Below are positions 8,216 through 60,922 of a stretch of 64,000 nucleotides of DNA, piece by piece. The notes below the pieces were generated by a model. It was not told where the DNA came from. It saw only the letters and a program-made list of their open reading frames with translations, and did not search any database. The stretch covers positions 48,482 through 112,481 of the forward strand of contig JABIDK010000006.1 in NCBI GenBank assembly GCA_018651725.1, written 5' to 3'. The first letter of the stretch is position 1, and each line of letters begins with the position of its first letter. The stretch comes from Candidatus Falkowbacteria bacterium (GTDB lineage Bacteria; Patescibacteriota; Patescibacteriia; JAACEG01). A program made the translations under genes and the position numbers.

Positions 8216-9721
8216 ATGTCAAATAAATTTTACATCACAACACCGATTTATTATATTAATGCTAAGCCACATATTGGGAGTGCTTATACTACTATTGCGG
8301 CGGATGTTTTGGCTCGTTTTCATCGGATGATAGGGGATGATACTTTCTTTTTAACCGGGACCGATGAACATGGAGAAAAAAATGAAGCGATTGCTAAAAA
8401 GGAAAATATAGATCCGCAAGAATATTCTGATAAAATGAGTGCTGAGTTTGAATTGACTTGGGATAGTTTGAATATCAGTAATGATAATTTCATTAGAACT
8501 ACAAATAAAAAACATAAGCAAGCGGTTCAAAAAGCCTTGCAGTATATGTACGACAAAGGTTATATCTATAAAGGTGAGCACTCCGGTCTTTACTGCCCCG
8601 GCTGTGAACAGTATAAAACTGAAAAAGATCTGGACAAAGGACTTTGTCCAGACCATAAAACCAAACCAAAAGTAGTAAGTGAAGAAAGTTATATGTTTAA
8701 GATGAGTGCTTTTTCTAACAAGATTAAAAAAGCTATTGAGAAAGATGAGCTGTTGATTACACCAAAAAGCAAGAAAAAAGAAATTTTGTCTTTTTATAAA
8801 GATGGTTTAAAAGATATTTCTTTTTCCAGAACAAATACTACCTGGGGAGTGGAGTTGCCTTGGGATAAAAAGCAGGTTTCTTATGTCTGGCCGGATGCTT
8901 TTTTAAACTATTTAACCGGTCTTGATTGGAGTGGTACAGCAGGGAAAGCCCCGAAAATGTGGCCGGCTAATGTTCATTTAATGAGTAAAGATATTTTACG
9001 GGTTCATGCTACAATTTGGCCGGCGATGCTTTTGGCTCTTGATTTGCCACTTCCAAAGGAATTATTTATTCACGGGTTTTTCTTGGTTGATGGGCATAAA
9101 ATGAGCAAGTCAATCGGTAATGTAATTTCCCCAGACGAACTTATTAAAAAATACGGCGTTGACGGTAGTCGCTATCTTTTAATGAGTGCTACGCCGTTTG
9201 GACACGATGGAGATATCAGTTTTCAAAAATTTGATGAAAAATACAACGCTGACTTGGCTAATGGGTTGGGAAATTTAGTGGCGCGATCGCTAACTTTAAC
9301 CTTAAAGTTATTTGACGCCGGACTTAAGCTGAAAAAAACAGATGATTCTCAGGAAATAGATAAAGCCTGGAAATCTTATAGCAATAAACTGGAAAATATA
9401 GAGATAGACAAAGCCTTAAAAATGGTCAATGAACAAATTCAGTATTTAGATGGACTTATCACTAAAACTAAGCCTTGGGAATTAATAAAAACAAAGAGTG
9501 CAAAAGTTGAAAAAATAATGTATAATATACTGGAGACAATTTATCACATCTCTTTAATGCTTTTACCGTTCATGCCGGAGACAAGTGATAAAATTTTAGA
9601 AAGCCTAGGAATTGATCCAACTAAAGAAAAGAAAAAAAACTTTAAAGATTTAACAAAGTGGGGGAGACTATCCGAAAAAGCCAAAGTGAAAAAAATAGAT
9701 ATTTTATTTCCGCGAATATAA
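8216..9721 (+). CDS. metG: Methionyl-tRNA synthetase, short form without C-terminal tRNA-binding domain
   Basis: 'PIYYINAKPHIGSAYTTIAAD' is the HIGH region. The class I 'KMSKSIGN' motif is present. There is a CPGC...CPDH zinc knuckle. Confidence 0.85.
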   Translation: MSNKFYITTPIYYINAKPHIGSAYTTIAADVLARFHRMIGDDTFFLTGTDEHGEKNEAIAKKENIDPQEYSDKMSAEFELTWDSLNISNDNFIRTTNKKHKQAVQKALQYMYDKGYIYKGEHSGLYCPGCEQYKTEKDLDKGLCPDHKTKPKVVSEESYMFKMSAFSNKIKKAIEKDELLITPKSKKKEILSFYKDGLKDISFSRTNTTWGVELPWDKKQVSYVWPDAFLNYLTGLDWSGTAGKAPKMWPANVHLMSKDILRVHATIWPAMLLALDLPLPKELFIHGFFLVDGHKMSKSIGNVISPDELIKKYGVDGSRYLLMSATPFGHDGDISFQKFDEKYNADLANGLGNLVARSLTLTLKLFDAGLKLKKTDDSQEIDKAWKSYSNKLENIEIDKALKMVNEQIQYLDGLITKTKPWELIKTKSAKVEKIMYNILETIYHISLMLLPFMPETSDKILESLGIDPTKEKKKNFKDLTKWGRLSEKAKVKKIDILFPRI

Positions 9722-9742
9722 TTTATATAAAAATTTATTATT

Positions 9743-9852
9743 TGTCATTCCGACCGAAGCGAAGCGTAGTGGAGGAATCTGTGTGTAAGCTTGAGCTATT
9801 TATTTTTTTCGAGCAGATCCTTCGACTTCACTTCGTTACGCTCAGGATGACA
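9743..9852. repeat. Palindromic (inverted-repeat) intergenic element, copy 1 of 2
   Basis: The ~37-nt arms are 'tgtcattccgaccgaagcgaagcgtagtggaggaatc' and 'gatccttcgacttcacttcgttacgctcaggatgaca'. They are imperfectly complementary around a ~36-nt spacer. The termini match the element at 37875-37990. Confidence 0.6.
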
Positions 9853-9864
9853 TAACTTAAATTT

Positions 9865-11619
9865 ATGTTAAAAATGAAAAAACGTTATTTAATTGTTGTT
9901 TTATTTATTTTTTCTTTTAGTCTGGCTAACTTCGGTCTGGCCACTTATTCGGATCCTGTAGCGGAGACTAACGACAACCCGGTAACTTCTATTACTTTAA
10001 GCGGTGAGGGGGCAAATATCAGTTGGAGTACGCAAGGATATTCCTCTAAAGGATTTAAAGTTGCTTGGTCAAAAAATTCAGGTCCAACTTACCCAACCAG
10101 ATCAGGTGATAAATACCACTATCACTCAAGTCCAGGTAAATCAAGCGACACTTTAACTCCGTTTTCCGGTGATGGGACTTATTATGTTAAAGTTTGTGAG
10201 TATCTGGGCGGAAAATGTGGAAAGTATAGTAATGAAATAATGGTTAAATTAGGAAAGGAAGAAAATGAGTGGGTAAAACCTGACTCTCCTGAAGTACTTT
10301 TAGAAATAATTTTAAGCGGTGAAGGAAATAAGATTAATTGGACAGCTGATGGATATGTTATTAAAGGCTTTAAAGTTATTTGGTCAAAGAAAGAGCACCC
10401 AACTTATCCAACCAGACCAGGAGACAAATATCATTATTTTTCTAATCCAAACAAAAATGAAGATATTTTGACATCATTTTCCGGTAATGGAGTTTATTAT
10501 GTTAGAGTTTGTGAATATTTGGGAGGTAAATGTGGAAGGTACAGTAATGAAATTAAAATGCAGCTAGACGATGACAATAATTTAGAGTGTACAATGGAAT
10601 ATAATCCTGTTTGTAGTATTGACGGTAAGACTTATTCTAATAAATGCATGCTAAAAAAGAGCGGGGATGGCTTTAAATATTATGGTAGATGTAAAGATGA
10701 GCTTAATACCCTTAAGTTATATAGTTACGCTAACTGGATGTGCGCTAACGGGGAAATAGAAAAACACGAAGAAGAATCATCTTGTAAATCAGAAGAAACT
10801 TGGAAAAAATATGCTAAAGAATTTTGCGGTGATAGCGCTGTTGATTATTTTGCAGTAACCAAGGAATGTGTTCAGGATAATGATGTGATTGAGATGAAAA
10901 ATAAAGCTAAAGATATTACCGATGACAGATTTGATAAAATTTTAGAAGAATTAAAAGAGCTTAGAAATTTAGTTAAAGAACAACAGATAAAAATTGAGTT
11001 TTTAACTAGATTAAAAGATAATTTAGAGACGATTACAAGTAAAGTAGAAAGCATGCTTGGTGATTTTATTACTTACGGGGTTGACGAAAATACAAAGAAA
11101 ATAGGGGAAAGAGAAAGAGCCGCAGTTTTGTTTTCTTATAAAGGTGCGTTTAAAAAATTGCCTGAAAATGAAGATGAGATGGCTGATGTTATAAAAATTG
11201 CCAATGGACGTTGGCCAAATAAAAGAAATCAAGACGCTGAAAACGAAGCGGAAAGTCATTTTCAGAAGATATATAAAAAAGTCCCGGATATGAAAGATTC
11301 TAGTGATAATGCGGCTATTACGGTAATGGCTTATGGTTTGCGTCAAAAAGCAGAAAATAGGAATTTAGATTCAGAGCGTCAAGGAATTAAAATATTTATG
11401 GATATTTATGGCTATCATCCAGATTCTACTGAAGACTGGAATGTTATGCAGGCTATAACTTATTCCGGATCAAAAAGAGGGATTGATACCGACAAAGATT
11501 TATTAATTGACGAGCGTGAGGTAGAGCTTGGCACTGATCCAAATAATCCGGACACCGACGGAGATGGTCATTTAGACGGAGTGGAAGTGGCAAATGGATT
11601 TGACCCCTTAAACAAATAG
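9865..11619 (+). CDS. Secreted protein with two tandem ~95-aa repeats, a Kazal-type domain and C-terminal Asp-rich (TSP3-like) repeats
   Basis: There is a signal peptide. Repeats 'ITLSGEGANISW...YYVKVCEYLGGKCGKYSNEI' and 'IILSGEGNKINW...YYVRVCEYLGGKCGRYSNEI' are present. 'CTMEYNPVCSIDGKTYSNKC...C' matches the Kazal pattern (compare ovomucoid 'LEYRPLCGSDNKTYGNKC'). 'DPNNPDTDGDGHLDGVEV' occurs at the end. Confidence 0.6.
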   Translation: MLKMKKRYLIVVLFIFSFSLANFGLATYSDPVAETNDNPVTSITLSGEGANISWSTQGYSSKGFKVAWSKNSGPTYPTRSGDKYHYHSSPGKSSDTLTPFSGDGTYYVKVCEYLGGKCGKYSNEIMVKLGKEENEWVKPDSPEVLLEIILSGEGNKINWTADGYVIKGFKVIWSKKEHPTYPTRPGDKYHYFSNPNKNEDILTSFSGNGVYYVRVCEYLGGKCGRYSNEIKMQLDDDNNLECTMEYNPVCSIDGKTYSNKCMLKKSGDGFKYYGRCKDELNTLKLYSYANWMCANGEIEKHEEESSCKSEETWKKYAKEFCGDSAVDYFAVTKECVQDNDVIEMKNKAKDITDDRFDKILEELKELRNLVKEQQIKIEFLTRLKDNLETITSKVESMLGDFITYGVDENTKKIGERERAAVLFSYKGAFKKLPENEDEMADVIKIANGRWPNKRNQDAENEAESHFQKIYKKVPDMKDSSDNAAITVMAYGLRQKAENRNLDSERQGIKIFMDIYGYHPDSTEDWNVMQAITYSGSKRGIDTDKDLLIDEREVELGTDPNNPDTDGDGHLDGVEVANGFDPLNK

Positions 11620-15335: not shown

Positions 15336-15407
15336 CGCGGGGTAGAGCAGTGGCAGCTCGTCGGGCCCATAACCCGAAGGTCGTAGGTTCGAATCCTACC
15401 CCCGCAA
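15336..15407 (+). tRNA. tRNA-fMet (initiator), anticodon CAU
   Basis: Folded by hand. Acceptor 'cgcgggg'/'ccccgca' has a C1xA72 mismatch. U8 is present. D-arm is 'gagc-agtggca-gctc'. Anticodon stem 'tcggg/cccga' has three G:C pairs. Loop 'cccataa' gives CAU at 15368-15370. T-arm is 'gtagg-ttcgaat-cctac'. Discriminator is A. CCA is not encoded. Confidence 0.8.
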
Positions 15408-15408
15408 C

Positions 15409-15681
15409 ATGGATACAAATAAACCTTACGAAGTTTATATTATAAAGAGTGAATGTGGTAAATTATACACTGGAATGAGCGAAAATGCTGATATTAGGCT
15501 TAAAAATCATAACGCAGGTATATCAAAATGGACAAGTAAGTATCAAAATTGGAGAATGGTTTATAAAGAGAGTTTTCCTAACTATAGTGAAGCCAGAAAA
15601 AGAGAAATTTATTTGAAGAAACAGAAGGGTGGTAACGGATTGAAAAAAATAATAGAAGGTGGCAGCTCGTCGGGCCCATAA
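15409..15681 (+). CDS. GIY-YIG nuclease-family small protein (YhbQ/YazA/UPF0213-like)
   Basis: 'PYEVYIIKSECGKLYTGMSENADIRLKNHNAG...WRMVYKESFPNYSEARKREIYLKK' carries the GIY...YTG motif. The conserved Arg/His/Glu spacing matches standalone ~90-aa GIY-YIG proteins. The last 8 codons and stop lie inside the partial tRNA repeat. Confidence 0.75.
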   Translation: MDTNKPYEVYIIKSECGKLYTGMSENADIRLKNHNAGISKWTSKYQNWRMVYKESFPNYSEARKREIYLKKQKGGNGLKKIIEGGSSSGP

Positions 15682-15726
15682 TCCCGCCGCGGCGGGATCG
15701 TAGGTTCGAATCCTACCCCCGCAACA
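15653..15726 (+). repeat. Partial direct repeat of tRNA-fMet (D-arm to 3' end), diverged in anticodon-stem/variable region
   Basis: 'tagaaggtggcagctcgtcgggcccataa' and 'tcgtaggttcgaatcctacccccgcaaca' match the tRNA at 15343-15409. A palindromic 'tcccgccgcggcggga' replaces 'cccgaagg'. The 5' acceptor strand is missing. Confidence 0.7.
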
Positions 15727-15734
15727 GTTAAAAC

Positions 15735-15768
15735 AAAAAAACGCTTTGAATAGCGTTTTTTTGTTTTT
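15735..15768 (+). terminator. Rho-independent terminator
   Basis: Stem 'aaaaaacgct' pairs with 'agcgtttttt' around loop 'ttgaat'. A T-run follows. Confidence 0.6.
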
Positions 15769-37143: not shown

Positions 37144-37880
37144 GGAATAAGCCTTTTTTCTAAAATAGAAATTATTTTATTTAGAAAATAACCAAGCATA
37201 CCGATTAAAATCATACCGATTATAATTTTTTCTGTTTGCAGTAAAAGTCTGTTTAGTTGGATAAAATAACCTAGCCCGGATTGAGCCCCGATTAATTCGG
37301 CTGCGATTACGCTCATCCAAGCCATGCCGATACCAATTCTCAGTCCGGTAAAAATGTAAGGCAGAGAAAAATAAAACAGTATTTTTTTAAAAAATATAAA
37401 TTTGGTTACTTCAAAAGAAAGAGCAACATTTTTGTAAACTCTAGGAAGAGACTTAACTCCGAAAAAAGTATTGGTAAAAATCGGAAAAAATGCTCCTAAA
37501 AAAACAATGAAATAAGCCGAGCCATTGCCCAGTCCAAAAATTAAAATAGCAATTGGTATCCAGGCTATCGGCGGAATAGGACGAAGTATTTCAACGATTG
37601 GATGAAAATAACTCCCTGCTTTTTTAAAGTAACCCAGTATTAAACCTAAAAAAACTCCGGTCACAGAAGCTAGTGTAAAACCAATCACTACTCTTTTTAA
37701 GCTTACAAAAATATGCTTAATTATTTCCCCTGATTCAAAGACTTTTATAAAAGTTAAGGCTGTATTTTTAGGAGAAGGCAAAATATAATTTTGAGGCCCT
37801 AAAATCAAAAAAACCCCTTGCCATAAAACAATCAAAGTAATAAATGTAATAAGTTTTTGTTTCATTTGTGGTTTTGTCAT
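37131..37880 (-). CDS. ABC transporter permease (NitT/TauT family)
   Basis: 6 TM with an EAA-like loop. It overlaps the ATPase start. The first codons overlap the repeat element, so the alternative Met at 37865 may be the true start. Confidence 0.75.
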   Translation of the reverse strand: MTKPQMKQKLITFITLIVLWQGVFLILGPQNYILPSPKNTALTFIKVFESGEIIKHIFVSLKRVVIGFTLASVTGVFLGLILGYFKKAGSYFHPIVEILRPIPPIAWIPIAILIFGLGNGSAYFIVFLGAFFPIFTNTFFGVKSLPRVYKNVALSFEVTKFIFFKKILFYFSLPYIFTGLRIGIGMAWMSVIAAELIGAQSGLGYFIQLNRLLLQTEKIIIGMILIGMLGYFLNKIISILEKRLIPWKI

Positions 37881-37990
37881 TCTGAGCGAAACGAAGTGGA
37901 GTCGAAGAATCTATTTGAATTGCGGTTTAATTTGAATCAGTAAGTAGATTTTCTAGATCCTTCGACTCGCTCCACTCGCCCAGGATGACA
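37875..37990. repeat. Palindromic (inverted-repeat) intergenic element, copy 2 of 2
   Basis: Arms are 'tgtcattctgagcgaaacgaagtggagtcgaagaatc' and 'gatccttcgactcgctccactcgcccaggatgaca'. It has the same termini as the element at 9743-9852. Confidence 0.6.
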
Positions 37991-43751: not shown

Positions 43752-45487
43752 AGTACTTTAAAATTTTAATCATCATAAGTGGGGTTATTATTTTATTTTT
43801 TGTATATCAAAATTATACTAGCTCTTTAACTCATAATTTACAGAAAATAGGGTTAAGCTCAAAAGGATTATATGGCTTTAAGGTCGATGAACAAATCAAT
43901 TTTCAAGAACAAGTTATTGTTGCCAAAAAAAATGATGAGCAAATAAAAATAAAAATTACTCCAGATGTAAGTAATATAGAAGTGTTGAAATTAATTTCTA
44001 AAGAGGAAGAATTTTTGACAAGTATGTATGATTCCGTGCTCTATCCCTACCCTGAGTTTTTAGATAAAAAAAATGAGTGTGTAGAAGAATATAAGCCAAT
44101 AAAAAAAGAGCATGGACTAGGGGAATATTTTTTGCTATACGCTAAAGAAAATTTTAATTACGGAGCTTGTGAAGAAAAAGAAGCAAAATATAAAATACTG
44201 CTTACATTTTTTTATTTAGAAGAAGAGAATATTTTTTTGGAGTTGGAGTATAGCATATCAAAACAAAAAAGATTTTCTTCAATGGAAGAAATTATTAATA
44301 CTATAAAAGCCGACGACGAGGTCCTGAGCCTCGCTGGGCGGAATCAAGATGACACGACAGAGAAAGAGTTTTCTCAAAATGACACAAATAAAAATAAAAT
44401 AGAAATTTTCAGTGTGGCTGGTTGTCCTTTTACTCGCGATTTGGTGCATGCGCTGGCTCTTTTTTTAAAGAAAACAAATCAAGAAATTAGAGATAGTATG
44501 GATATAAAAATATCTTATTACGGCAAAGAATATGAAAAAGGCAAGTTTATCTCTTATCATGGTAAAGAAGAGCCGAAGCTGAATATTCTGGAGCTTTGCA
44601 TTATTGATAAGTACCCTGATAATTTAGAATATTTTTATATTATTGACTGTCTTTTTCAAAAAGTAAATTTAAGTAAGATAGATGAAAGCATTACGGATTT
44701 AATGGGTAGTTGGGAGACGTGTACTAAGGATGTGGCAGTTAATAAAAATGACGAAGTTAAAAAATGTGCCTCTTCAGAAGAGGGAAAAGATCTTTACAGG
44801 GAATCTATAGCTTATATTACCACTAAAAAATATGCTAAATTTCCGCCGATTTTGCGATTTAATGATAAAAATTTCCCCACTGTTAAGCCGGACGCCTTTA
44901 GACTTGAGCTCTGTAAAAAATTGGATAATAGTAGTTTGGAGTGCTTGGATATACCAGAGTGTTACGGAGAAGCTAACTGTCAAGACAAGAAAAATAAAGC
45001 GTCGTTTTGTATGAAAAATAAATGTGAATATGGTGATAAAATAAAAATGATTGTACTAACAGATGATTTTACAGATACTGAAAACAATTATGCTATAGAA
45101 TGGTATAGCTTGTTATACGGAGAATTTGATGTTGAGCATATTAATATTAATAGTTTTAAGGGTAGCCAATTAGCAAAAGAATTAAATTTACTGGAATTTC
45201 CGGTGATATTAATCGATGATCGTATTGAAAAAATAAACAGATTCAAAGAAAGGTTTGGCTACACCAGACTTATATTTTCTAACAAAAAAAATAATTGGTA
45301 CATTGTTGATCATGACAGGTTTAGTTTTACTAACGCAATTATTCGTGATCAGATTCAAAATGCTGAAGGAATTCATTTTCGAGATAGCGGGCTTAAAACC
45401 TCGGATAAAATGAAAGAATATTTTGGGAACCGCCCTGAATTTTACAAAGAATCAAAAGAATATTTTAATGAAAATTTTTTACAATGA
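43742..45487 (+). CDS. Paralog 3 with ~370-aa C-terminal extension (possible thioredoxin-like modules)
   Basis: The N-terminal 200 aa carry the family blocks. The extension has 'FSVAGCPFTRD' and 'EFPVILIDD', which resemble thioredoxin-fold motifs. This is inference only. Confidence 0.45.
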   Translation: MRIKYFKILIIISGVIILFFVYQNYTSSLTHNLQKIGLSSKGLYGFKVDEQINFQEQVIVAKKNDEQIKIKITPDVSNIEVLKLISKEEEFLTSMYDSVLYPYPEFLDKKNECVEEYKPIKKEHGLGEYFLLYAKENFNYGACEEKEAKYKILLTFFYLEEENIFLELEYSISKQKRFSSMEEIINTIKADDEVLSLAGRNQDDTTEKEFSQNDTNKNKIEIFSVAGCPFTRDLVHALALFLKKTNQEIRDSMDIKISYYGKEYEKGKFISYHGKEEPKLNILELCIIDKYPDNLEYFYIIDCLFQKVNLSKIDESITDLMGSWETCTKDVAVNKNDEVKKCASSEEGKDLYRESIAYITTKKYAKFPPILRFNDKNFPTVKPDAFRLELCKKLDNSSLECLDIPECYGEANCQDKKNKASFCMKNKCEYGDKIKMIVLTDDFTDTENNYAIEWYSLLYGEFDVEHININSFKGSQLAKELNLLEFPVILIDDRIEKINRFKERFGYTRLIFSNKKNNWYIVDHDRFSFTNAIIRDQIQNAEGIHFRDSGLKTSDKMKEYFGNRPEFYKESKEYFNENFLQ

Positions 45488-49051: not shown

Positions 49052-52000
49052 AAAAATAACTTTAATTTTTTTAGGAGTTTTGATATCTCTAACTTTGCTT
49101 GAGATCAGTTTGCGTTTAGCCGGCAAAGGGTTTTTGTATATTCAAGAAAAAAGAAATATAGTTAGTGAAGAAAAAAATGTTTTTACGATTTTGTGTATCG
49201 GAGAATCAACTACTGCGCTTGCCGGGGATAAAACCAATATTTTTTTAACGGATAAGGAATCTTTTCCAAGACAGTTGGAAGAGATTTTAAATGAAAAATA
49301 CGATGATACGGAATTTAAAGTTATCAATAAAGGTATAATGGTCGGTGATTCAATAAAAATCTTAAGGGAACTAGAAGATGACTTAAATGAATATAATCCC
49401 GATATGGTGATTTCTATGATGGGATTAAAAGACACAAATCATACCTCGCTCTTTAATAAACCAATGATTCTGTCCGGAAATAAGAAAATTGATGAAAAGG
49501 AAGACGATTTTTTTTGGGAGAAGTTTAAAATCTATGGCCTTGTAGGTTTTATTAAAGAGCGCTTGGGAAATAACAAAACCTTGGAAGAAAAAATAGATTT
49601 AGAGGGATTAGCCGAAGATGTTTATTTTACACCTGATCTTTACGCTCGGATTTTTCACTTTAAAGAAGGAGAACGCATCGATGAAGGCACAATGAAAAAA
49701 CTTCTTATAGGGAAATTTTATGAGGATCGGGGCATGTATACTGAGGCAGAAAAGATATATAAAGAAGAAGTGAAAAATAAAAAAGCCGGGTATTTGGGGC
49801 TGGTCAGCGTTTACACACAGGAAGAAAAGTTTATAGAAGCTGAGGAAGTATTAAAAAAGGCCATCAGCGAAAATCCAAATTACAGTATTTACATAGCTGA
49901 GCTAGGAAAGCTCTATGAGGAAATAAATAAAGAACAAGAAGCTGAAGAAATGTTTTTGCAGGCCATTGAAATAGACGCAAACGAATATGTTTATATTGAG
50001 GCCGGTAAATTCTATAAAGTAACCGGTAACCATAAAAAAGCCGAGGAGATGTTTTTGCGCGCTATTGAAGTAAATGAAAAAGAATTTTACGCTTTTGAAG
50101 AAGCCGGTAAATTTTACAAAGAAGTTGGTAACCAAGAAAAAGCTGAAGAGCTGTTTCTAAAAGCAATTGAAGTTAATCCGCAAAAACACACGAGTTATCT
50201 TAATCTTGAAGATCTTTATAGTCAACAAAAAGATTATATTAAAGAGGAGAATATTTACAAGCAAGCGATTGTTGCTAACCAGAGAATCGGCGAATACTTT
50301 GAGCTTGTGAAATTTTATCAAAATCATGAAAAAGAAGAAGGTGCTAAAAAAGTTTTTGTTGACGCTCTTAAAAATGTTCCCTCTTATGGACATAACTACA
50401 AAATGCTTTTAGAAATTTTAGAGGAAAAAAATATACCTTTAGTAGCTATGGGCTACCCTTCTTATAATTTGGGTTTATTAAAAAATATTTTCCCTGAAAA
50501 TGATAAAATAACATTTATTGATAATAAAAATGTTTTTGAAAGTAGAGATCAAGAAGATTTTTATTTTGAAAATAAATTTCCTTATCAATTTAATCATTAC
50601 ACAAAATTGGGAGCCAAATTAATAGCAGACAATATTGCCAGCGCTATCGAAGATAGTGTTAAAAAAATAAATCAGCCAGAGGCTGGTCAGTCTCTGGCTG
50701 AAAAACAAGAATTAGGGGTTGATTTATCTTGTCCGGATTGCAATCTGATTGTTGTGTCTCTTTCTAATGTTCGGAAGGATCATTTGGGGCTTTATGGATA
50801 TTCTCGCGATACCTCCCCTAATATCGATGAATTTTTTAAAGATTCAATTGTGTTTGACTCTACTTTTGCACCGGCTTCTTGGACTTTCACAAACGCGGTT
50901 TCGTTTTTGACATCGCTTTCTCCGTATAAACATGGTATAATGGAAAGGAAGAAAAATGTTAATTTATCAAAGATAAATAACATAAAATTTTTAGCTGAAA
51001 TTTTAAAAGATAATAACTATAAAACAGCCGCTTTTGTCAGTGATGAAGACTATAACCGCAAATATGGGCTGAATAGGGGCTTTGATACTTTCTTTGATAA
51101 AAATAGTTATTTTGATTATGGCATAAAGTTTAATCCCGGGGAGTATAATATCGGGACCAAGCAACTTGTTGGTCCGGCCGTAGATTGGATGAAAGAAAAT
51201 TATAAAGATAAATTTTTTTTGCTTCTTCAGGGTTTTGATGCTCATTGTCCGTATACGCCAAATAGCCCTTACGATAAAAAATTTAGTTCTAAGGAGAGTA
51301 AACAAGATTTTTCTGAGTGCTATATTACTCCTAAAGTTGTTGAATCAATAGAAACAGATAGTGGAAAAAAGTGGCCATTGCAAAGCTGGTCTTCCTTTAA
51401 AGAAAAAGGAGATGAAAAAATATTGTTTAAGAAAGAAGATATCGAACAAATGATAACGCTTTATGATGGAGAAATAGCCCAAGCCGATAATAATTTAAAA
51501 GATTTGTTTGAAACAATAGAAGATCTGGACTTAACAAAAAATACAATAATTGTTTTCTTGTCAGAACACGGTGAATTATTTGGTGAAAACGGATTTTTTA
51601 TGAGAGTTTCTTTAAGCGCTCAGGGAACTTTAAACGATAAAATAATTAATATTCCTTTTATAATGAAGCATCCTAAGGTAGATAGAGCGATGCAAATTGA
51701 TAGTCTAGTTCAATTGATTGATTTAGCGCCTACTTTTTTACAGATCTTAGGACTGGAAGGATACTATGGCGGGCAGATGCAGGGTAAAAGTATTGTACCG
51801 GTTATTACTAAAAACAAAGAAGTGAATGAATTTGTTTATGGGGGCGTAAAGCGAAAACATTCTATTTATGATCCAGACGAGGTTTTTCTAACCGAGTTTA
51901 TTAGAGACAAGCAATGGAAGCTGTTAAAAGAAATAATAATAAACAGTAAATCACAAGAGCAAATTTCGGAATTTTACGGACTTTATAATACAATAAAAGA

Positions 52001-52094
52001 TTCTGAGGAGAAAGAAAATTTATATGATCAAAATAACAATATAGCAAAACAATTATTAAATAATTTAAACTTATGGGTAACAGAACAAAAGTAA
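49035..52094 (+). CDS. Multidomain membrane-anchored protein: SGNH-like hydrolase blocks split by TPR repeats, plus C-terminal sulfatase-fold (AlkP-superfamily) domain
   Basis: N-terminal TM. 'LCIGESTTA' is like SGNH block I. 'FNHYTKLGAKLIA' is like block V. Between them are ~6 TPR-like repeats ('AEEMFLQAIEID...AEELFLKAIEVNP'). The C-terminus has 'CPDCNLIVVSLSNVRKDHLGLYGY' and 'SEHGELFGENG'. Confidence 0.55.
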   Translation: MKNMFKKITLIFLGVLISLTLLEISLRLAGKGFLYIQEKRNIVSEEKNVFTILCIGESTTALAGDKTNIFLTDKESFPRQLEEILNEKYDDTEFKVINKGIMVGDSIKILRELEDDLNEYNPDMVISMMGLKDTNHTSLFNKPMILSGNKKIDEKEDDFFWEKFKIYGLVGFIKERLGNNKTLEEKIDLEGLAEDVYFTPDLYARIFHFKEGERIDEGTMKKLLIGKFYEDRGMYTEAEKIYKEEVKNKKAGYLGLVSVYTQEEKFIEAEEVLKKAISENPNYSIYIAELGKLYEEINKEQEAEEMFLQAIEIDANEYVYIEAGKFYKVTGNHKKAEEMFLRAIEVNEKEFYAFEEAGKFYKEVGNQEKAEELFLKAIEVNPQKHTSYLNLEDLYSQQKDYIKEENIYKQAIVANQRIGEYFELVKFYQNHEKEEGAKKVFVDALKNVPSYGHNYKMLLEILEEKNIPLVAMGYPSYNLGLLKNIFPENDKITFIDNKNVFESRDQEDFYFENKFPYQFNHYTKLGAKLIADNIASAIEDSVKKINQPEAGQSLAEKQELGVDLSCPDCNLIVVSLSNVRKDHLGLYGYSRDTSPNIDEFFKDSIVFDSTFAPASWTFTNAVSFLTSLSPYKHGIMERKKNVNLSKINNIKFLAEILKDNNYKTAAFVSDEDYNRKYGLNRGFDTFFDKNSYFDYGIKFNPGEYNIGTKQLVGPAVDWMKENYKDKFFLLLQGFDAHCPYTPNSPYDKKFSSKESKQDFSECYITPKVVESIETDSGKKWPLQSWSSFKEKGDEKILFKKEDIEQMITLYDGEIAQADNNLKDLFETIEDLDLTKNTIIVFLSEHGELFGENGFFMRVSLSAQGTLNDKIINIPFIMKHPKVDRAMQIDSLVQLIDLAPTFLQILGLEGYYGGQMQGKSIVPVITKNKEVNEFVYGGVKRKHSIYDPDEVFLTEFIRDKQWKLLKEIIINSKSQEQISEFYGLYNTIKDSEEKENLYDQNNNIAKQLLNNLNLWVTEQK

Positions 52095-53848
52095 ATAATA
52101 AAAAAATAATTTTATTGTCTTTATTGGGGTTGATTTTAGCGCTCTTTGTTTTTCTTTTTCTAAAATATATTTTTCTAGAAAACAAAGGACAAAAATCACC
52201 TCCTACTACTCTATCGACCGCTAAAGAAGCTCCTTTATCACGATTTGAAAAATTTGATTTTGAAAATTTAAGATTAAATAAAGACGATAATTTATATTCT
52301 ATTAAACAAGGAGAAGTGTTTAAAAATAGCTCGCTAAAAGTTGAAAATAAAGAAAAAATTGGAAAATTGAAACGTTTGGCTATGTTTTATCTATGGAGTA
52401 AGGAAGATCCATTATTGACAAGTCCTGATTTTGATTTTGTAAATTTTGCCAAAAGTTTGGAAATTTTAGACAAAGACTCAAAAGAACTTTTTAAATTGTC
52501 TGGATTAGAAGATAATATTTTTCCAATAAGCTTTTTATCAAAAATGCAAGTTGTTGCCAGTAATCACTCTGCTTTTATGAACAATATCAGCGAGCAAAAC
52601 GCTGTCAGTCTTTTAGACTCACTTGACAAAGCTGTAACTGAGTACGAAAAAGAAGCTAAATATTTACATATAAAAGTAAGTAGTGTTAAAAAAGATGAAA
52701 ACTTTATATTTCTCCCCTCTCTTATGACTAACAGAGCAATCGTTATGAATGATCTAGGAAAGATAGTGGAAAATGCAAAAAAACTTTCCAGTGAAGTAGG
52801 AATAAGAAAAGAGTGTTTTTACGAAGATTCTTTTTTCTGTGTTTTACCGAAGCTTAGTCTGGAAAAACCCATTAGACCAGGTGAAGATGATTTTAGTTGG
52901 GCACCTTATTTAATGAATAAAGATAAATTATTTTATCCGATTGAATATAAAAATAGCTTATTTGAAGGTCCTTATCAAATAGAAACCAAATGTATAAAAC
53001 CGGCTAACTCTTCATTAGGCGATAAACAGTTAATTTATACAGCTGTTTCTGATAATAATTTATTAAACACCCCTATTCAATTTTTTAAGTCTGCTACTAA
53101 CAACTATTATTCTAATAATTTTGATCCAAAAATATTAGATAAGTTAAAGAATAAGAATGCAAAGTACAAACCAATGCCGGAGACCAACCCTTATGCCTGT
53201 GTTGATTTTGAGTATCTGCCAAAGGTGGCTGTTATTAATAGTTTTTTCTTAAATTATAAAAATAATCTTATTTTTGAGGGTATTCAAGGACAACATTATT
53301 TTAATGACTTAAACAAGGAATTACAAAAAACAATTAAAGAAGGAATGGAGGCAGAGAATAACTTTTTCAATAAAGACTACCCTACTTTAAAAGACTTAGA
53401 ATATTTATCCGAGGTTTATTTTTATGTTTACTCAAAAATGTTAAGCCAAAATTTTTTTGATGAAAATTTACAAGAGGAGTTATTAAATAGATATTTAATT
53501 GTGAACAGGGGGTTAAGCGATTTTGATTTGTTGTTTAATAATTTTACCTATTATTATATTAATCTTTTAAAAAGATATTCTTTAGCTGGGACAAAATTTT
53601 CTGAAGACCAAATTTATTTAACCAGAACCGCTTACTCATTGACCTTTTTCCCTTTTTCTTCTTCTGTTTGGCGTATTTCTGATAAGTTAAAATATTATAA
53701 TATTTTAGAAGAAAAAACTGACTCTCCCTTTACTGATTATAAAAGCGCGATTTTAAAATATAGTGAAAAAGAAGTTCTAAGCTGGAACGAAAATAACAAC
53801 ATGCCACAAATATACGAGCAATTGATTCAAGAAAGGTTGAAAAATTAG
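52073..53848 (+). CDS. Membrane-anchored hypothetical protein
   Basis: N-terminal TM. 591 aa. No motif recognised. Confidence 0.3.
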   Translation: MGNRTKVNNKKIILLSLLGLILALFVFLFLKYIFLENKGQKSPPTTLSTAKEAPLSRFEKFDFENLRLNKDDNLYSIKQGEVFKNSSLKVENKEKIGKLKRLAMFYLWSKEDPLLTSPDFDFVNFAKSLEILDKDSKELFKLSGLEDNIFPISFLSKMQVVASNHSAFMNNISEQNAVSLLDSLDKAVTEYEKEAKYLHIKVSSVKKDENFIFLPSLMTNRAIVMNDLGKIVENAKKLSSEVGIRKECFYEDSFFCVLPKLSLEKPIRPGEDDFSWAPYLMNKDKLFYPIEYKNSLFEGPYQIETKCIKPANSSLGDKQLIYTAVSDNNLLNTPIQFFKSATNNYYSNNFDPKILDKLKNKNAKYKPMPETNPYACVDFEYLPKVAVINSFFLNYKNNLIFEGIQGQHYFNDLNKELQKTIKEGMEAENNFFNKDYPTLKDLEYLSEVYFYVYSKMLSQNFFDENLQEELLNRYLIVNRGLSDFDLLFNNFTYYYINLLKRYSLAGTKFSEDQIYLTRTAYSLTFFPFSSSVWRISDKLKYYNILEEKTDSPFTDYKSAILKYSEKEVLSWNENNNMPQIYEQLIQERLKN

Positions 53849-53860
53849 TTTTAATTCAGT

Positions 53861-56515
53861 ATGAAGAAATTTATTATAATTTTATTTTTTGTATTAAGCG
53901 TTATTTTAATAACGCTTTTTTTCTCTGGTAAAACTGTTGATAGTGACCCGTTAAATTGTAAGGATTGTAATTTAATAATTATTTCTCTTACAAATACGCG
54001 CAAGGATAATCTCGGTATCTATAATCACAAAGAAATAACATCTCCTAATATTGATAATTTTTTCAAAAATTCACTTATTTTTGAAAATACTTTTTCTCCT
54101 TCTCCTTGGACACTTCCAAATGCTGCTACTTTATTTACCACCCTGCCACCTTTTAAACATAAAGTTATAAGTAGATACAAAGACAATAAACTGCCAAAAA
54201 ATGCAAAAACTTTAGCTCAAATTTTACAAGATAACAACTATAAAACAGCTGCTTTTACCGGGGGTGGAGATTATGATCGAAGTTATGGTTTCAATAAAGG
54301 CTTTGATGAGTATTATGACGAAAAAAAATTTGCCAAGCTAGATTACTATAAAGATGATATTATTTCTTGGTTAAACACTAATGAAAAAGATAAGTTTTTC
54401 TTATTCTTGCAAGGTTTTGATACGCACTGCCCTTTTTCTCCACCATCTTCACCAGAGACAAAAACATGTTTTTGGAATTTACATGATTCAGAAGAAGATT
54501 TAGTTTACACTCAGGGTGATAATAATGAGACAATCACAAAGATATTAAGCGAAAACGACAAGGAACAATTAAAAAACCTTTACAATGAAGAGATCCAGGA
54601 AGCGGATAATAATTTAGGAGAAATTTTTAAAACTATAACGGATTTAAAATTAGACAAAAAAACCATCATTGTTTTTTTGTCAGAGCACGGGGATTTACTG
54701 GGAGAAAAAAATCAATTTATGAGAACAGATGTAATTGGCAGTTTTTCCGATAAGGTTTTAAATATTCCTTTTCTTATTAAGCACCCCTTTATTAAAACAA
54801 AACAAAAAATCAATGAACTTGTACAATTGTCAGATGTAATGCCAAGTGTTTTAAGGATGTTAAATATTGATTATAAAAAAGAAAATTTACAAGGAAAAGA
54901 TATAACATCTTTGGTTAGTAGTAATAAAAAAATTAATGATTATGTTTACGCCGGGCTTACTTACAAGGGCACAGAAGACAGCCAATTTTTTAGAGATATA
55001 AGACTGGGGAGTATGATTAGAGATTTGAACAATAAATTAGTTCATTATCAGATTTTTGATTTAGAAAACAATAGTTCTACAAAAGATTATTATGAATTTT
55101 ATAATATTAAAAAAGATTCAAGTGAATTAAATAATAATATAAAAGAAGCAATTTCTACACCGGAATTTAAAAGTTTAAAAAATAAATTGTTTACAATAGA
55201 AAATAAAACAGTGAAAGAATTTTCTTTACCGTCTTTATTTGCCTCACAAATTGATAATGTTGTTTTAATCACAATCGATACGTTGCGCGCAGATCATTTG
55301 AGCTTTATGGGTTATCCTCGTAACACCTCACCCTTTTTAGATAAATTAGTAAAAAAAAGCATTTTATTTAAAAATGCTCACACAGTTATTCCAAACACCG
55401 CCCCATCTCACGCCTCTATTTTTACAGGCTTATATCCGTCACAGCATGGAGTAACAAATCAATACGAGGAACTAGAGGAACAGTTTGTGACCATAGCGGA
55501 AGTTTTTCAAGAAAACAGATACAAAACGTTGGGATTTTCTTCTAGTCAATTTTTATTTTCTGAAAATAATTTAAATCAAGGATTTGGCTTCATAAAGGAA
55601 ATAATACCTCAAAAAAATAAAAGATATTTCGGGAGGCCGGCAAGTGTTGTAATAAACAAGGTTATAGAAAAATTACCATCGAAAAATTCATTTTTATGGG
55701 TACATTTTTTAGATCCACATTATCCGTTTAATACTTATAACTCAGATTTTAAAAATAAATTTACTGATACCGACGATAGTCTTGTAGAATTTTGGATAAA
55801 AAATCAGGGAGTAAACTTAGATATCTATAAAAAAAACAAAAAAGAAAATTTAATAAAAACAATGAATGCCTATGACACGGAGATTTTATTTGTTGATCAG
55901 CAAATTGAAAAACTATATAATCACTTTGAGGAAAAAGGATTAAATAGCAATACGCTTTGGGTAATCACTTCTGATCACGGCGAAGGTCTGGGGAGTCATG
56001 ATTTTTTTGAACATGGAAATAAGTTGTACGAAGAAGAGTTGCTTGCCCCGATTATCTTTAAATTTCCAGGTCAACTTCAGCTGGAATCAAAAACAATAAA
56101 TACTTTGGTAGAAAATATTGATATTATGCCAACCATTTTGGATATTATGGATCTTCCTTTAAGTGACATAGAGATGCAAGGCAAATCATTGTTTGGGAAA
56201 ATTTTAGGAGACAAAAGTAAAGACGAGGAGTTTTCTGTTGCCTGGACAGGTAATCTTCCTAAGGGAGTAAGAAACCCGGAAATTGAGAGTATCAATTTTG
56301 ATAATGTTATTTGGGATGGTAATAAAATATCTATTCAAAATAATGAGTACAAATATATTTATAATATAGATATAGAAACTAAGAATGAACTTTACGATTT
56401 TAGAAATGATCCGCTTGAGAAAAATAACTTAATAAATAAATCATCGAACAAAGCAGATGAATTTAAAAATATTTTAATGCAAAAAATTAAGGAATTAAAA
56501 ATTTTACCAATTTAA
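53861..56515 (+). CDS. Membrane-anchored protein with two tandem sulfatase-fold (AlkP-superfamily) domains
   Basis: Domain 1 has 'CKDCNLIIISLTNTRKDNLGIY' and 'SEHGDLLGEKN'. Domain 2 has 'VVLITIDTLRADHLSFMGYPRNTSPFLD', 'NTAPSHASIFTGLYPSQHG' and 'TSDHGEGLGSHDFFEHG'. Confidence 0.6.
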   Translation: MKKFIIILFFVLSVILITLFFSGKTVDSDPLNCKDCNLIIISLTNTRKDNLGIYNHKEITSPNIDNFFKNSLIFENTFSPSPWTLPNAATLFTTLPPFKHKVISRYKDNKLPKNAKTLAQILQDNNYKTAAFTGGGDYDRSYGFNKGFDEYYDEKKFAKLDYYKDDIISWLNTNEKDKFFLFLQGFDTHCPFSPPSSPETKTCFWNLHDSEEDLVYTQGDNNETITKILSENDKEQLKNLYNEEIQEADNNLGEIFKTITDLKLDKKTIIVFLSEHGDLLGEKNQFMRTDVIGSFSDKVLNIPFLIKHPFIKTKQKINELVQLSDVMPSVLRMLNIDYKKENLQGKDITSLVSSNKKINDYVYAGLTYKGTEDSQFFRDIRLGSMIRDLNNKLVHYQIFDLENNSSTKDYYEFYNIKKDSSELNNNIKEAISTPEFKSLKNKLFTIENKTVKEFSLPSLFASQIDNVVLITIDTLRADHLSFMGYPRNTSPFLDKLVKKSILFKNAHTVIPNTAPSHASIFTGLYPSQHGVTNQYEELEEQFVTIAEVFQENRYKTLGFSSSQFLFSENNLNQGFGFIKEIIPQKNKRYFGRPASVVINKVIEKLPSKNSFLWVHFLDPHYPFNTYNSDFKNKFTDTDDSLVEFWIKNQGVNLDIYKKNKKENLIKTMNAYDTEILFVDQQIEKLYNHFEEKGLNSNTLWVITSDHGEGLGSHDFFEHGNKLYEEELLAPIIFKFPGQLQLESKTINTLVENIDIMPTILDIMDLPLSDIEMQGKSLFGKILGDKSKDEEFSVAWTGNLPKGVRNPEIESINFDNVIWDGNKISIQNNEYKYIYNIDIETKNELYDFRNDPLEKNNLINKSSNKADEFKNILMQKIKELKILPI

Positions 56516-56527
56516 CAACAGCCCCAT

Positions 56528-57907
56528 ATGAAAACTATATTAAATTTTTTAGAGAAAAATTATTTGCGTATAATTTTAACAGTTTTGATAATGTCTTTAT
56601 TGCTTATTTTTGGAAGTTCTTTAAATAGATCGTTTGATCACGATGAGTTCGAGGCGATTCACACAGCTTGGAAAATTTCAGAAGGTGAAGTAATTTACTC
56701 TGATTTTTTCCAGCACCACCACCCCTTATTTTATTATTTATTAGTACCTTTTATAGAAATATTTGGAGAAAATGTTAATACGATTTTAACGATTAGGTTT
56801 TTTATTTTTTTAGTTTTGCTCGGCATTGTTATCACAACCTATTTGTTGGCAAGAATAATTTTTAAAAATAAAAAATGGTCTTTAATCAGCGCCACTCTAC
56901 TCCCTCTTTTTATTGTTTTCGCAAATAAGGGGATTGAAGTAAGACCGGATATTCCTCAAACTTTTTTCGGACTTCTCTCAGTGCTGTTTCTGTTTTATTA
57001 TTTTGACAATCGAAGAAATAAAAATTTAATATTAAGCTCTGTATTTTTAGGAATTTCTTTTCTTTTTTTACAAAAAACTTTATTTTTAATAGTTCTTTTT
57101 GGTTGTTTTTTTATTTATTTATTATTCAAAAAGAAAATAGCTTATAAGAATTTTTTAATTTATTGGGGGACTTTATTTTTTATTTTAATTTTATTTGCTA
57201 TATTTTTATTTTTTTCCGGAAATATCAAAGAATACTTTTTTTTAAACTGGGCTTTGAACATTAATTTTTTAAACGACTTTTCTTCTTTTAAGTATTTTTT
57301 AGAAATTATCAAACAAAATATTATAATTTTTATTTTTTACATAGTCGGATTATTGTCTTTAGTTAAAAAAAGACAGTTAAGGGGTGTAGGTTTTTTATCT
57401 CTCGGGCTTTTACTGTCTGTATTTTTATTGAAAACCCCGTTTGCTCAAAATTATTTATTAGCTCTACCCTTTATTTGCATAATATCTGTTTTAGGCATAA
57501 AGTTTATTATAAAGGATAAGATAATTATTTTATTAATAATATTAATTTCCTCTTCAATTTCATTTAATATTCTAGCAGTTAATTTACAGAACTCTAATAA
57601 AGATCAATTAAATAAAATAAATCATATTTTATCCATTACCGACAAAGATGATTACATCCACGACGGTGACGCACAGTTTAATTTATTCAGAAAAGATTTA
57701 GATTATTTTTGGTTTGGACTTAAGGAAAATGGTGCTTTGTCAACTTATAATTCCATACGTGGATATGAATATAACACTTACGATTTAATAAAAAAATTCA
57801 AGCCAAAGGTTGTTTCTGATCGCTTTGTGGATGTAAGTAATGAGTATATTTTTAATAATTATATGGAAGATAATAATTTTAATCATATCCTTATAAAAAT
57901 ACCTTAG
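56528..57907 (+). CDS. GT-C-fold membrane glycosyltransferase-like protein (PMT/ArnT-like)
   Basis: ~11 TM. The first extracytoplasmic loop is 'FDHDEFEAIHTAWKISEGEVIYSDFFQHHHP', which resembles the DE...Y...A...G loop of PMT/ArnT enzymes. Confidence 0.45.
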   Translation: MKTILNFLEKNYLRIILTVLIMSLLLIFGSSLNRSFDHDEFEAIHTAWKISEGEVIYSDFFQHHHPLFYYLLVPFIEIFGENVNTILTIRFFIFLVLLGIVITTYLLARIIFKNKKWSLISATLLPLFIVFANKGIEVRPDIPQTFFGLLSVLFLFYYFDNRRNKNLILSSVFLGISFLFLQKTLFLIVLFGCFFIYLLFKKKIAYKNFLIYWGTLFFILILFAIFLFFSGNIKEYFFLNWALNINFLNDFSSFKYFLEIIKQNIIIFIFYIVGLLSLVKKRQLRGVGFLSLGLLLSVFLLKTPFAQNYLLALPFICIISVLGIKFIIKDKIIILLIILISSSISFNILAVNLQNSNKDQLNKINHILSITDKDDYIHDGDAQFNLFRKDLDYFWFGLKENGALSTYNSIRGYEYNTYDLIKKFKPKVVSDRFVDVSNEYIFNNYMEDNNFNHILIKIP

Positions 57908-57908
57908 T

Positions 57909-60918: not shown

Positions 60919-60922
60919 AAAA

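Follow-up and report, generated by a model that had tools for sequence, protein, structure and literature searches.

The 64,000-nucleotide stretch of DNA analyzed here (contig JABIDK010000006.1 of a Candidatus Falkowbacteria bacterium, positions 48,482 to 112,481; hereafter, the window) carries two copies of a palindromic intergenic element, located at positions 9743-9852 and 37875-37990. Our analysis showed that the repeat unit of this element is the single arm, each arm being, as covariation indicates, a hairpin of its own, and not the doublet that two arms form; each copy is very probably a head-to-head (HH) doublet of the repetitive extragenic palindromic (REP) type. The window elements belong to, or are closely allied with, the known CGTC/TGTC superfamily of REPs as TGTC-tagged members; they have a more elaborate hairpin than has been described for that superfamily and are not a new kind of element. 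The explanation that we favor overall, with a rough probability of 60%, is that of a HH heterodimer of REP-type hairpins resembling bacterial interspersed mosaic elements (BIMEs) and REP doublets forming hairpins (REPINs), with the RNA-level role and the origin proposed below. An earlier note on this DNA had read the copies as elements of either the REP or the miniature inverted-repeat transposable element (MITE) type; the former reading was upheld, as the copies are non-coding dispersed palindromic repeats of a large family and neither chance nor one-off hairpins.

Two Inverted Pairs of Arms in the Window

The two copies and their parts are as follows, with the scores of a covariance model of the arm.

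9743-9852, no strand assigned: copy 1, 110 bp, HH doublet of two unlike hairpin arms
9743-9779, plus strand: left arm of copy 1 ("B-type"), TGTCATTCCGACCGAAGCGAAGCGTAGTGGAGGAATC, 60 bits
9780-9815, no strand assigned: spacer of copy 1, 36 nt, AT-rich, unlike the spacer of copy 2
9816-9852, minus strand: right arm of copy 1 ("A-type"), minus-strand reading TGTCATCCTGAGCGTAACGAAGTGAAGTCGAAGGATC, 62 bits
37875-37990, no strand assigned: copy 2, 116 bp, HH doublet of two unlike hairpin arms
37875-37911, plus strand: A-type arm of copy 2, TGTCATTCTGAGCGAAACGAAGTGGAGTCGAAGAATC, 64 bits
37912-37955, no strand assigned: spacer of copy 2, 44 nt, AT-rich
37956-37990, minus strand: B-type arm of copy 2, TGTCATCCTGGGCGAGTGGAGCGAGTCGAAGGATC, slightly degenerate (first GA changed to GG), 35 bits, E = 1.3e-6

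The window has a G+C content of about 32%, and the elements within it of 42-46%. A degenerate 14-mer describing the termini (TGTCATYCYGRSCG) has exactly four perfect matches in the 64 kb, which form two inverted pairs (9743 plus with 9852 minus, and 37875 plus with 37990 minus); shuffled sequence gave a mean of 1.25 matches even with 2 mismatches permitted. The same four arms were picked out by an inner motif (AGTCGAAGRATCT), and an unfiltered search with the arm covariance model, whose training set included three of the window arms but not the B-type arm of copy 2, returned the four arms only, the next match having an E-value of 0.47. That next match (44318-44354, 12.8 bits) lies inside a coding region and is probably due to chance; it comes from one of two TGTCAT(C/T)TTGA motifs that stand 36 nt apart there on the minus strand (44318-44400). 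The four arms are 35-37 nt long and share 70-89% pairwise identity; the A-type arms are 89% identical across the copies, the two arms inside one copy are 73-76% identical, and the 36- and 44-nt spacers are unrelated. Two of the claims of the earlier note, namely conserved inverted termini in both copies and a variable spacer of about 36-44 nt, are thus confirmed, by four exact 14-mer ends far above chance and by the spacers as measured. The note was also right to call the open reading frame (ORF) at 9658-9855 spurious: it is the 3′ end of metG in another frame read on through copy 1, and it has no Pfam match.

Relatives of the element were sought with a pattern of two 14-nt termini 65-95 nt apart, both in viral contigs and in a one-genome-per-species collection. 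The pattern matched 25 viral contigs and at least 120 loci of the genome collection, and the family counts given below are over the loci listed. The terminal-motif search that the note had proposed thus led to hundreds of copies elsewhere, and in place of two isolated copies with no structural conservation we found a large family with a conserved fold. A chance palindrome or an assembly artefact, for which only the low copy number in the window speaks, is refuted by these hundreds of covarying relatives, by the four exact motif matches, and by the fact that the sequence of both copies is unchanged across 6 and 3 independent assemblies from different samples.

Covariation Supports a Fold within the Arm

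From the listed loci that matched the two 14-nt termini, 264 arms were parsed; because the search pattern had left the inner parts of the arms free, these parts could be used as a test of structure. The results showed that the outer TYCY is fully complementary to the inner RGRA of its own arm in 258 of the 264 listed arms, in four variants (CCT/AGG, CCC/GGG, TCC/GGA and TCT/AGA), and that the G or C of GA[S]CG pairs with the C or G of [S]GA in all 264. Of the 53 doublets of unlike arms, 47 retained both arms internally perfect while the pairing from arm to arm was broken (with gains of A·C and G·T). An ungapped 39-nt alignment of 27 arms, which included three window arms, had 97.9% of its cells paired under the proposed structure, and 40 cells were compensatory as against 12.5±3.5 after shuffling, with none of 500 shuffles reaching 40; sliding the partners by 1-3 columns lowered the paired cells to 25-55%. 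Within this alignment T6-A35 was paired in 27/27 arms and A5-T36 in 22/27, and RNAalifold independently predicted the same arm pairs.

The arm architecture predicted from these alignments is, from the outside inward, an unpaired TGTC tag followed by the pairs A-T, T-A, Y-R, C-G and Y-R, then an invariant G·A and A·G, and then S-S and C-G with one bulged T. Its distal part is predicted to consist of a symmetric GRA/GRA purine loop and a variable stem with a GNA loop, and the arm to end in a C(T/C) tail. Longer arms, including all four of the window, have an apical stem of 2-9 bp whose sequence is arbitrary but complementary, and the caps are mostly GNA triloops (GAA 27, GCA 10, GTA 7). The B-type arm of copy 1, one of the rows of the 27-arm alignment, illustrates the self-fold with ATTCC/GGAAT, the tandem G·A, C-G and an apical GC-GAA-GC; its hairpin was also recovered by a DNA minimum-free-energy fold at -3.7 kcal/mol. 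The A-type arm of copy 2 differs from an arm of a viral contig (L016, from 11756) at two positions only, ATTCT/AGAAT versus ATCCT/AGGAT, and these two differences compensate each other. The A-type arm of copy 1 has the same 14-nt insert as an arm of Faecousia (Clostridia; L080).

When folded as RNA, a check that the note had proposed, both strands of both copies were more stable than every one of 200 shuffles (z of -3.7 to -7.6). The note had described each copy as a long imperfect inverted repeat. The palindrome is real, but it is secondary: it exists because two hairpin units lie head to head, and covariation keeps the pairing within the arms and not that between them.

Distribution, Arrangement and Neighbors of the Family

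Among the matches listed, the family is present in at least 17 bacterial phyla plus viral contigs, and the carrier genomes range from 34 to 75% G+C. The carriers in this list are found in the Bacteroidota (Hymenobacter, Flavobacterium, Mucilaginibacter and Alistipes) and the Rhodothermales, in the Acidobacteriota, Verrucomicrobiota, Planctomycetota, Patescibacteria, Gemmatimonadota, Actinomycetota, Chloroflexota and Spirochaetota, and in the Pseudomonadota (Alpha- and Gammaproteobacteria), Bdellovibrionota, Desulfobacterota, Bacillota (Clostridia), Armatimonadota, Omnitrophota and Eremiobacterota. The viral contig L016 has seven near-identical copies in 14 kb, which occupy the spacers between co-directional phage genes. 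By blastn, neither the window copies nor the L016 copy had a match among GenBank phages and PLSDB plasmids, where the only plasmid matches were alphaproteobacterial variants.

With regard to arrangement, the listed loci of the paired pattern gave 132 HH (tags outside) and 4 tail-to-tail (TT; tags inside) doublets and 40 single arms, and 53 of 120 dimers were heterodimers at the covarying triplet. A scan for a stem variant (GTCATTGCGAGCGNAGCGAAGCAATC), which was not selected for pairs, matched at least 120 viral contigs; among the matches listed, 138 arms were classifiable, with 66 in HH pairs, 61 single, 6 TT-like and 5 head-to-tail (HT)-like. The base preceding GTCAT was T in 328 of 332 family arms, from loci that had been selected with TGTCAT; where that base was left free, in the TGC-stem variant, it was C in 87 and T in 53 of the matches listed. 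Tails of the family were mostly CT. or CC., and the TGC-stem variant had CCAG in 57 of 143 (again among the matches listed). By rough gene calls, the listed loci lay between unidirectional genes in 46 cases, convergent genes in 18 and divergent genes in 8, with medians of 27.5 nt for the distance from the preceding stop and 69 nt for that to the next start.

Several of the listed loci show further rearrangements. Short tandem duplications of one terminus together with 6-10 nt of flank were seen in L082, L092, L095, L100, L104, L142, L146, L148 and L014; the L095 element has TGTCATCCTGAGCGTTAGGC twice at its left, mirrored at its right, and nested elements were seen in L104 and L142. A comparison of L016 (12469-12729) with L019 (4357-4449) revealed a 168-nt unit, made up of 47 nt of conserved flank and a whole element, beside the element that the two share; it is bounded by an identical ...CGCTCAGAATGACATGCG, and an insertion would explain it as well as a loss through recombination between arms. 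The unit that is repeated among these related contigs measures about 160 nt, reaching beyond the TGTCAT...ATGACA core, with asymmetric conserved flanks.

A linked enzyme was sought by clustering the ORFs within 3 kb of 145 loci and within 1.5 kb of 120 loci, and none was found; the only recurrent ORFs were response regulators, ABC (ATP-binding cassette) ATPases, phage structural proteins and spurious peptides encoded by the repeats. No transposase was detected within 3 kb of the 145 family loci, and in 17 cases of neighboring elements neither a REP-associated tyrosine transposase (RAYT) nor any common gene lay between them, the intervening ORFs being unrelated. In the window, the gene tables covering about 1-49 kb list no transposase, whether of the IS200/IS605 type or other. 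The cognate transposase that the note had suggested looking for was therefore found neither in these tables nor as a recurrent neighbor of the 145 and 120 loci.

These results bear on the MITE reading, according to which the elements would be internally deleted forms of a DDE-type insertion sequence that are cut and pasted, with target-site duplication, by a transposase encoded elsewhere. MITEs carry target-site duplications and terminal repeats derived from the parent insertion sequence, and what is repeated in them is the entire element between its two terminal repeats. The bacterial MITEs known as Correia/CREE, RUP, ERIC and Nezha are like the present elements in being about 100-150 bp long, non-coding and intergenic with inverted termini, and in being able to affect neighboring transcripts; the conserved inverted termini around a variable center, the patchy occurrence among relatives and the many near-identical copies on some contigs, such as the seven of L016, would all suit this reading. 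However, the window copies have no target-site duplication (TTATT precedes and TAACT follows copy 1, and GGTTT precedes and GCATG follows copy 2), and flanks across the family are unrelated. In addition, arms also occur alone, in the variant sample about as commonly as in pairs (61 versus 66 among the matches listed), and single arms in such numbers have no place in a MITE model. The arms are self-complementary and covary internally, and in many elements the differences between the two arms are concerted, which is unexpected for terminal repeats bound by a transposase; moreover, these termini were not seen on both sides of any gene, and there was no recurrent transposase family around the 145 and 120 loci. 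We consequently consider it improbable that the elements are MITEs.

A different proposal is that the hairpin acts only as DNA, in single-stranded or cruciform form, as a target for recombination or integration or as a site for gyrase or a nucleoid protein, with no role as RNA. A G·A-rich stem and a GCGNAGC/GNA triloop are classic features of hyperstable single-stranded DNA mini-hairpins, and d(GCGAAGC) is reportedly a stable DNA mini-hairpin (work attributed to Hirao et al.). Phage and prophage contigs often carry the family, and the polymorphism of L016 versus L019 places an extra unit right beside an existing copy. The Neisseria dRS3 repeats serve filamentous prophages as a target of this kind; CGTC-1 is equated with dRS3 in PMC3733652. 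Against this proposal, no integrase or recombinase recurs near the elements, the standard DNA energy model predicts no stable arms, and the bias toward gene 3′ ends is more simply explained by selection linked to transcription. As the sole account of the elements it appears unlikely to us, although it is compatible with the explanation that we favor and does not exclude it.

Comparison with CGTC-Tagged and GTAG-Tagged REPs

Di Nocera, De Gregorio and Rocco (BMC Genomics 2013; PMC3733652) split REPs into a GTAG-tagged and a CGTC-tagged superfamily. In that paper, the CGTC tag is described as "changed to TGTC ... in many repeats", TGTC or CCTC being accepted as well, and the stem, 8-9 bp with a loop of 4-5 nt, almost always opens with complementary A-T at positions one and two and is followed by an unpaired 3-nt tail with the consensus CCA. 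The paper also reports that HH dimers dominate, with spacers of 20-100 bp, that TT dimers are rare and HT dimers negligible, that heterodimers are frequent, that the ORFs on either side are unidirectional or convergent, with the repeats near the 3′ end of the upstream one, and that the repeats are not associated with transposase genes. The class is reported there from five phyla, CGTC-1 is equated with the Neisseria dRS3, and the Rickettsia RPE-4 and RPE-6 are included in it.

Judged by this description, the window elements share most of the features of the class. All four arms open with TGTC, their stem starts with A5-T36 and T6-A35, and the short tail begins with C; both copies are HH heterodimers whose spacers of 36 and 44 nt fall within the reported 20-100 bp. 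Their setting agrees as well, being intergenic between unidirectional or convergent genes near an upstream 3′ end, with no transposase in the window tables (about 1-49 kb) or near the 145 and 120 loci. The short form of the arm, with 5 Watson-Crick, 2 G·A and 2 Watson-Crick pairs and a GNA triloop, would fit a scheme of 8 + 5 + 8 if drawn as ATCCTGAG/CGAAG/CGAAGGAT, while the window arms represent the long form. One difference is the range of hosts, at least 17 phyla here, Patescibacteria included, as compared with the five reported in the paper.

The variant scan strengthens the link to this class. The GA-GCGNAGC-GA core with a CGTC head and a CCAG tail is present in at least 120 viral contigs, and blastn located dimers of the core in plasmids of Novosphingobium, Methylosinus and Methylobacterium. 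In plasmid pNL2 of Novosphingobium aromaticivorans DSM 12444 the arrangement is CGTCATTGCGAGCGTCGCGAAGCAATCCAG-15 nt-CTGGATTGC...CGCAATGACG, between two co-directional genes, and this species is named as a CGTC host in PMC3733652. The Rickettsia CGTC-1 peptide SFLRKQES given there can be back-translated, by our reading, to (G)TCATTCCTGCGAAAGCAGGAATCC, which has GTCATTCC...GGAATC in common with the arm at 9743.

The closest mechanistic analogue is that of the GTAG REPs and REPINs with their RAYT transposases, a system on which work is attributed to Bertels and Rainey (2011) and to Ton-Hoang (2012). In such systems the RAYT gene is itself flanked by REPs. As in the BIMEs and REPINs of that superfamily, the units are short imperfect intergenic hairpins with a conserved unpaired 5′ tetranucleotide (Nunvar 2010; PMC2817692), unlike units are paired in inverted orientation to give a hairpin of about 100 nt, and internal loops are followed by an inner GC stem, as in the Klebsiella REP GTAGGCCggatAAgGCGaAGcCGCCatccGGC. 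They differ in that the tag here is TGTC in all arms and not GTAG, in that no RAYT (TnpA_REP) was found in the window gene tables of about 1-49 kb, none being known for the CGTC class, and in that GTAG families are genus-specific whereas the window-type arm sequence is nearly the same across phyla. A further parallel concerns the IS200/IS605 subterminal hairpins and their PATE derivatives (cf. PMC6006769), which likewise are imperfect DNA hairpins with conserved mismatches and have no target duplication. IS200/IS605 hairpins are recognized as single-stranded DNA. The ends of these elements are direct rather than inverted on one strand, and they flank tnpA/tnpB, genes that were not found here.

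Gene Context of the Two Copies

Copy 1 sits between the stop codon of metG (9721) and the start of a same-strand gene with Kazal and TSP3 repeats (9865), beginning 21 nt past the metG stop and ending 12 nt ahead of the downstream ATG. Copy 2 lies inside an ABC transporter operon on the minus strand, between the stop of a gene encoding an NMT1-type substrate-binding protein (38021) and the start of the permease gene (37864 or 37880), which is followed by the ABC ATPase gene; it begins 30 nt past the upstream stop and ends 10 nt ahead of the permease ATG at 37864. Both copies therefore occupy short spacers that separate co-directional genes, just past the upstream stop codon, and the flanking genes are those that the note had described, with copy 1 at the metG 3′ end and copy 2 at the ABC permease 5′ end. 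In both copies it is the B-type arm that adjoins the upstream stop, a pattern that with n = 2 is only suggestive. The permease is annotated as 249 or 244 amino acids in different assemblies, because the terminal ATGACA of copy 2 contains a further ATG, in frame and 15 nt ahead of the likely start. When the outward-facing ATGACA was considered as a -35 hexamer, only weak 9/12 matches resulted and their direction was inconsistent between the copies, and this candidate was rejected.

The closest homologue found for the substrate-binding protein (75% amino acid identity) is encoded in the same operon arrangement, with a 48-nt spacer to the permease gene and no element. This spacer (L158, 11030-11077) has a small stem and a T-run, AAAAAGCTCGG-cttaaaat-CCGAGCTTTTTT, where the window has copy 2, and the hairpin looks like a terminator. 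No arms were found in about 90 kb from related genomes, and every strain-level contig has both copies, unchanged in sequence; the presence of the element is thus lineage-specific. Protein identity to the nearest relatives reaches only about 75%, and for this reason the spacers do not align.

This context raises the question of whether the element is a repeated Rho-independent terminator, one of the roles that the note had offered. A GC-rich hairpin does stand directly past the stop codon at both loci, and the relative carries one resembling a terminator at the corresponding position. The copies do not qualify as canonical intrinsic terminators, however, because a T-run is absent after both of them on both strands, and a terminator scan of both loci came back empty. 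Canonical terminators are used elsewhere in this genome, for example at 15738-15762, and in the operon that contains copy 2 the genes beyond it have to be expressed. Taken together, these points make a terminator highly improbable.

Proposed Role and Origin

Given that both copies lie in short spacers between co-directional genes just past the upstream stop, we take it as almost certain, by analogy with enterobacterial REPs, that each copy is transcribed together with the gene upstream of it. An mRNA-level role is a more tentative suggestion, drawn from the same analogy. The element encodes nothing and is unable to move by itself; its transcript may fold either into one long hairpin or into three hairpins closed by TGUCA/UGACA. 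The folded RNA could then impede 3′-to-5′ exonucleases or act as a processing site, so that the upstream message (metG, or that of the substrate-binding protein) would outlast the downstream one (permease and ATPase). A REP between binding-protein and permease genes, in malE-malF and hisJ-hisQ, is said to have been described by Newbury et al. in 1987, and copy 2 likewise stands between substrate-binding and permease genes. The attenuator-like hairpin of the relative at the same position would fit a selected role for structure there, which is circumstantial.

As to origin, the repeats may have arisen as single-stranded DNA hairpins copied by an enzyme acting in trans. We know of no enzyme that copies CGTC-class repeats, and no candidate emerged from the ORF clustering around the 145 and 120 loci or from the window gene tables (about 1-49 kb). 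The mobilization in trans that the note had proposed stays a conjecture, because the closest published family is explicitly described as not associated with transposases (PMC3733652). A bolder reading, which we regard as doubtful, is that the TGTC/CGTC hairpin is one pan-bacterial module. Its tandem sheared G·A, which is invariant, its purine loop and its apical stem with a GNA cap are features known above all from hyperstable mini-hairpins of single-stranded DNA. In this reading the module would be recognized by an enzyme that acts in trans, has no relation to RAYT and processes DNA or RNA in single-stranded form, and the near-identical sequence in Patescibacteria, Clostridia, Acidobacteriota and Bacteroidota would have been kept as its recognition site. 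If true, this would amount to a second REP-propagation system, possibly carried between phyla by phages. GIY-YIG genes, considered as possible carriers of these repeats, were rejected in this connection, since no TGTCAT hairpin lies near the GIY-YIG gene of the window and phmmer found no such gene near the arms.

A number of results weigh against the explanation that we favor. The isolated arms as DNA have folding energies of -0.9 to -3.7 kcal/mol, no better than shuffles, and the minimum-free-energy fold of the whole element is a long left-right hairpin; as nearest-neighbor energies do not favor isolated arms, it is covariation that carries the arm fold. At 35-37 nt, the hairpins of the window arms include G·A mismatches, an internal loop of purines and an extended apex, and the tail is CTG for either arm of copy 1 and CTA for either arm of copy 2, unlike the 8-9-bp stem, the 4-5-nt loop and the CCA tail described for the CGTC class; the likeness to that class was judged by the text of the paper. 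Similarly, the window-type covariance model scores CGTC/TGC-type arms only marginally (18 bits, E = 0.03), and kinship with the class consequently rests on shared architecture more than on sequence statistics. There is no sign of recent mobility in this lineage, with two copies in 64 kb, none in relatives and identical strains. Co-transcription and an effect on mRNA are drawn only from the analogy with enterobacterial REPs. Finally, the family shows no orientation bias with respect to transcription, with arm type and arm length both unbiased in 39 elements of unidirectional gene context, which is neutral to mildly unfavorable for a strand-specific RNA role.

This last result also tells against the idea of a structured cis-regulatory or small non-coding RNA selected for its function, in which a closing stem and three hairpins would meet in a four-way junction and present G·A motifs to a conserved protein. 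Such an RNA would account for the strong covariation of the arms and their invariant non-canonical positions, for the conservation of sequence across phyla, and for the preference for transcribed spacers near gene 3′ ends. On the other side, both strands give the same architecture, because the element is nearly palindromic; the flanking genes are unrelated between loci; and the many copies per contig, with nesting and partial tandem duplications, are the behavior of a repeat. Rfam 15 contained no matching family: nothing relevant passed the gathering score (in the window, tRNA alone did), and raising E to 10 added only sub-threshold noise of microRNA and small RNA families. Hammerhead, K-turn and box C/D-like (CUGA...GAUGA) variants of the idea misfit in consensus or register, in line with the negative Rfam result. 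A function-selected structured RNA is hence an unlikely alternative to the HH heterodimer of REP-type hairpins. With respect to earlier reports, a full-text literature search for the terminal 13-mers returned chance primer matches only, and a search of the papers available for REPs in Patescibacteria returned no relevant mention.

Other Features of the Window

Just downstream of copy 1, the Kazal/TSP3-domain gene contains tandem 315-bp repeats (9991-10553) that are 71-76% identical and are probably repeats of a protein domain. A tRNA-Met gene at 15336-15408 is followed one base on by an ORF for a 90-amino-acid GIY-YIG nuclease (15409-15681; Pfam E = 1.5e-14). The 3′ end of this ORF overlaps a partial second copy of the tRNA (about 15660-15727), which is without the 5′ acceptor and D-stem and differs in its variable region, and the canonical terminator hairpin at 15738-15762 comes after it. 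The whole of 15336-15762 resembles a mobile GIY-YIG gene of minimal size that entered at a tRNA gene and duplicated the 3′ part of the tRNA. Between about 17600 and 32300 the genes turn from the plus to the minus strand at about 18 kb and return to the plus strand at about 32.3 kb, and the sign of the GC skew flips along with it, from +0.2 to -0.11 and back. From about 50900 to 63800 there is an array of tandem paralogous genes of about 460-1000 amino acids, with common repeat families spaced about 1.5-3 kb apart, and this array has the lowest G+C of the window (27-29%).

Significance

For annotation, our data indicate that the ORF at 9658-9855 should be regarded as spurious, that the ATG of the longer permease frame, extended at its 5′ end to 37880, comes from the repeat, and that the palindromes are repeat units and not genes. 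What goes beyond routine in this family is the arm architecture defined by covariation, together with the unexpectedly wide spread over phyla and phage contigs. The poorly studied CGTC/TGTC class of REPs is now extended to the reduced genomes of Patescibacteria, to many phyla and to phage contigs, and it gains a hairpin architecture that is supported by covariation and has conserved non-canonical pairs. With such a spread and such an architecture, the possibility of a further system for the recognition or propagation of repeats stays open. The model, the consensus and the cultured hosts with high copy numbers (Hymenobacter, Novosphingobium) provide a handle for finding the recognition factor, a question that dates from the 2013 description of the class. 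Copy 2, in turn, is placed much like the malE-malF REP, which makes it well suited for testing whether REPs mediate differential expression in bacteria other than Proteobacteria.

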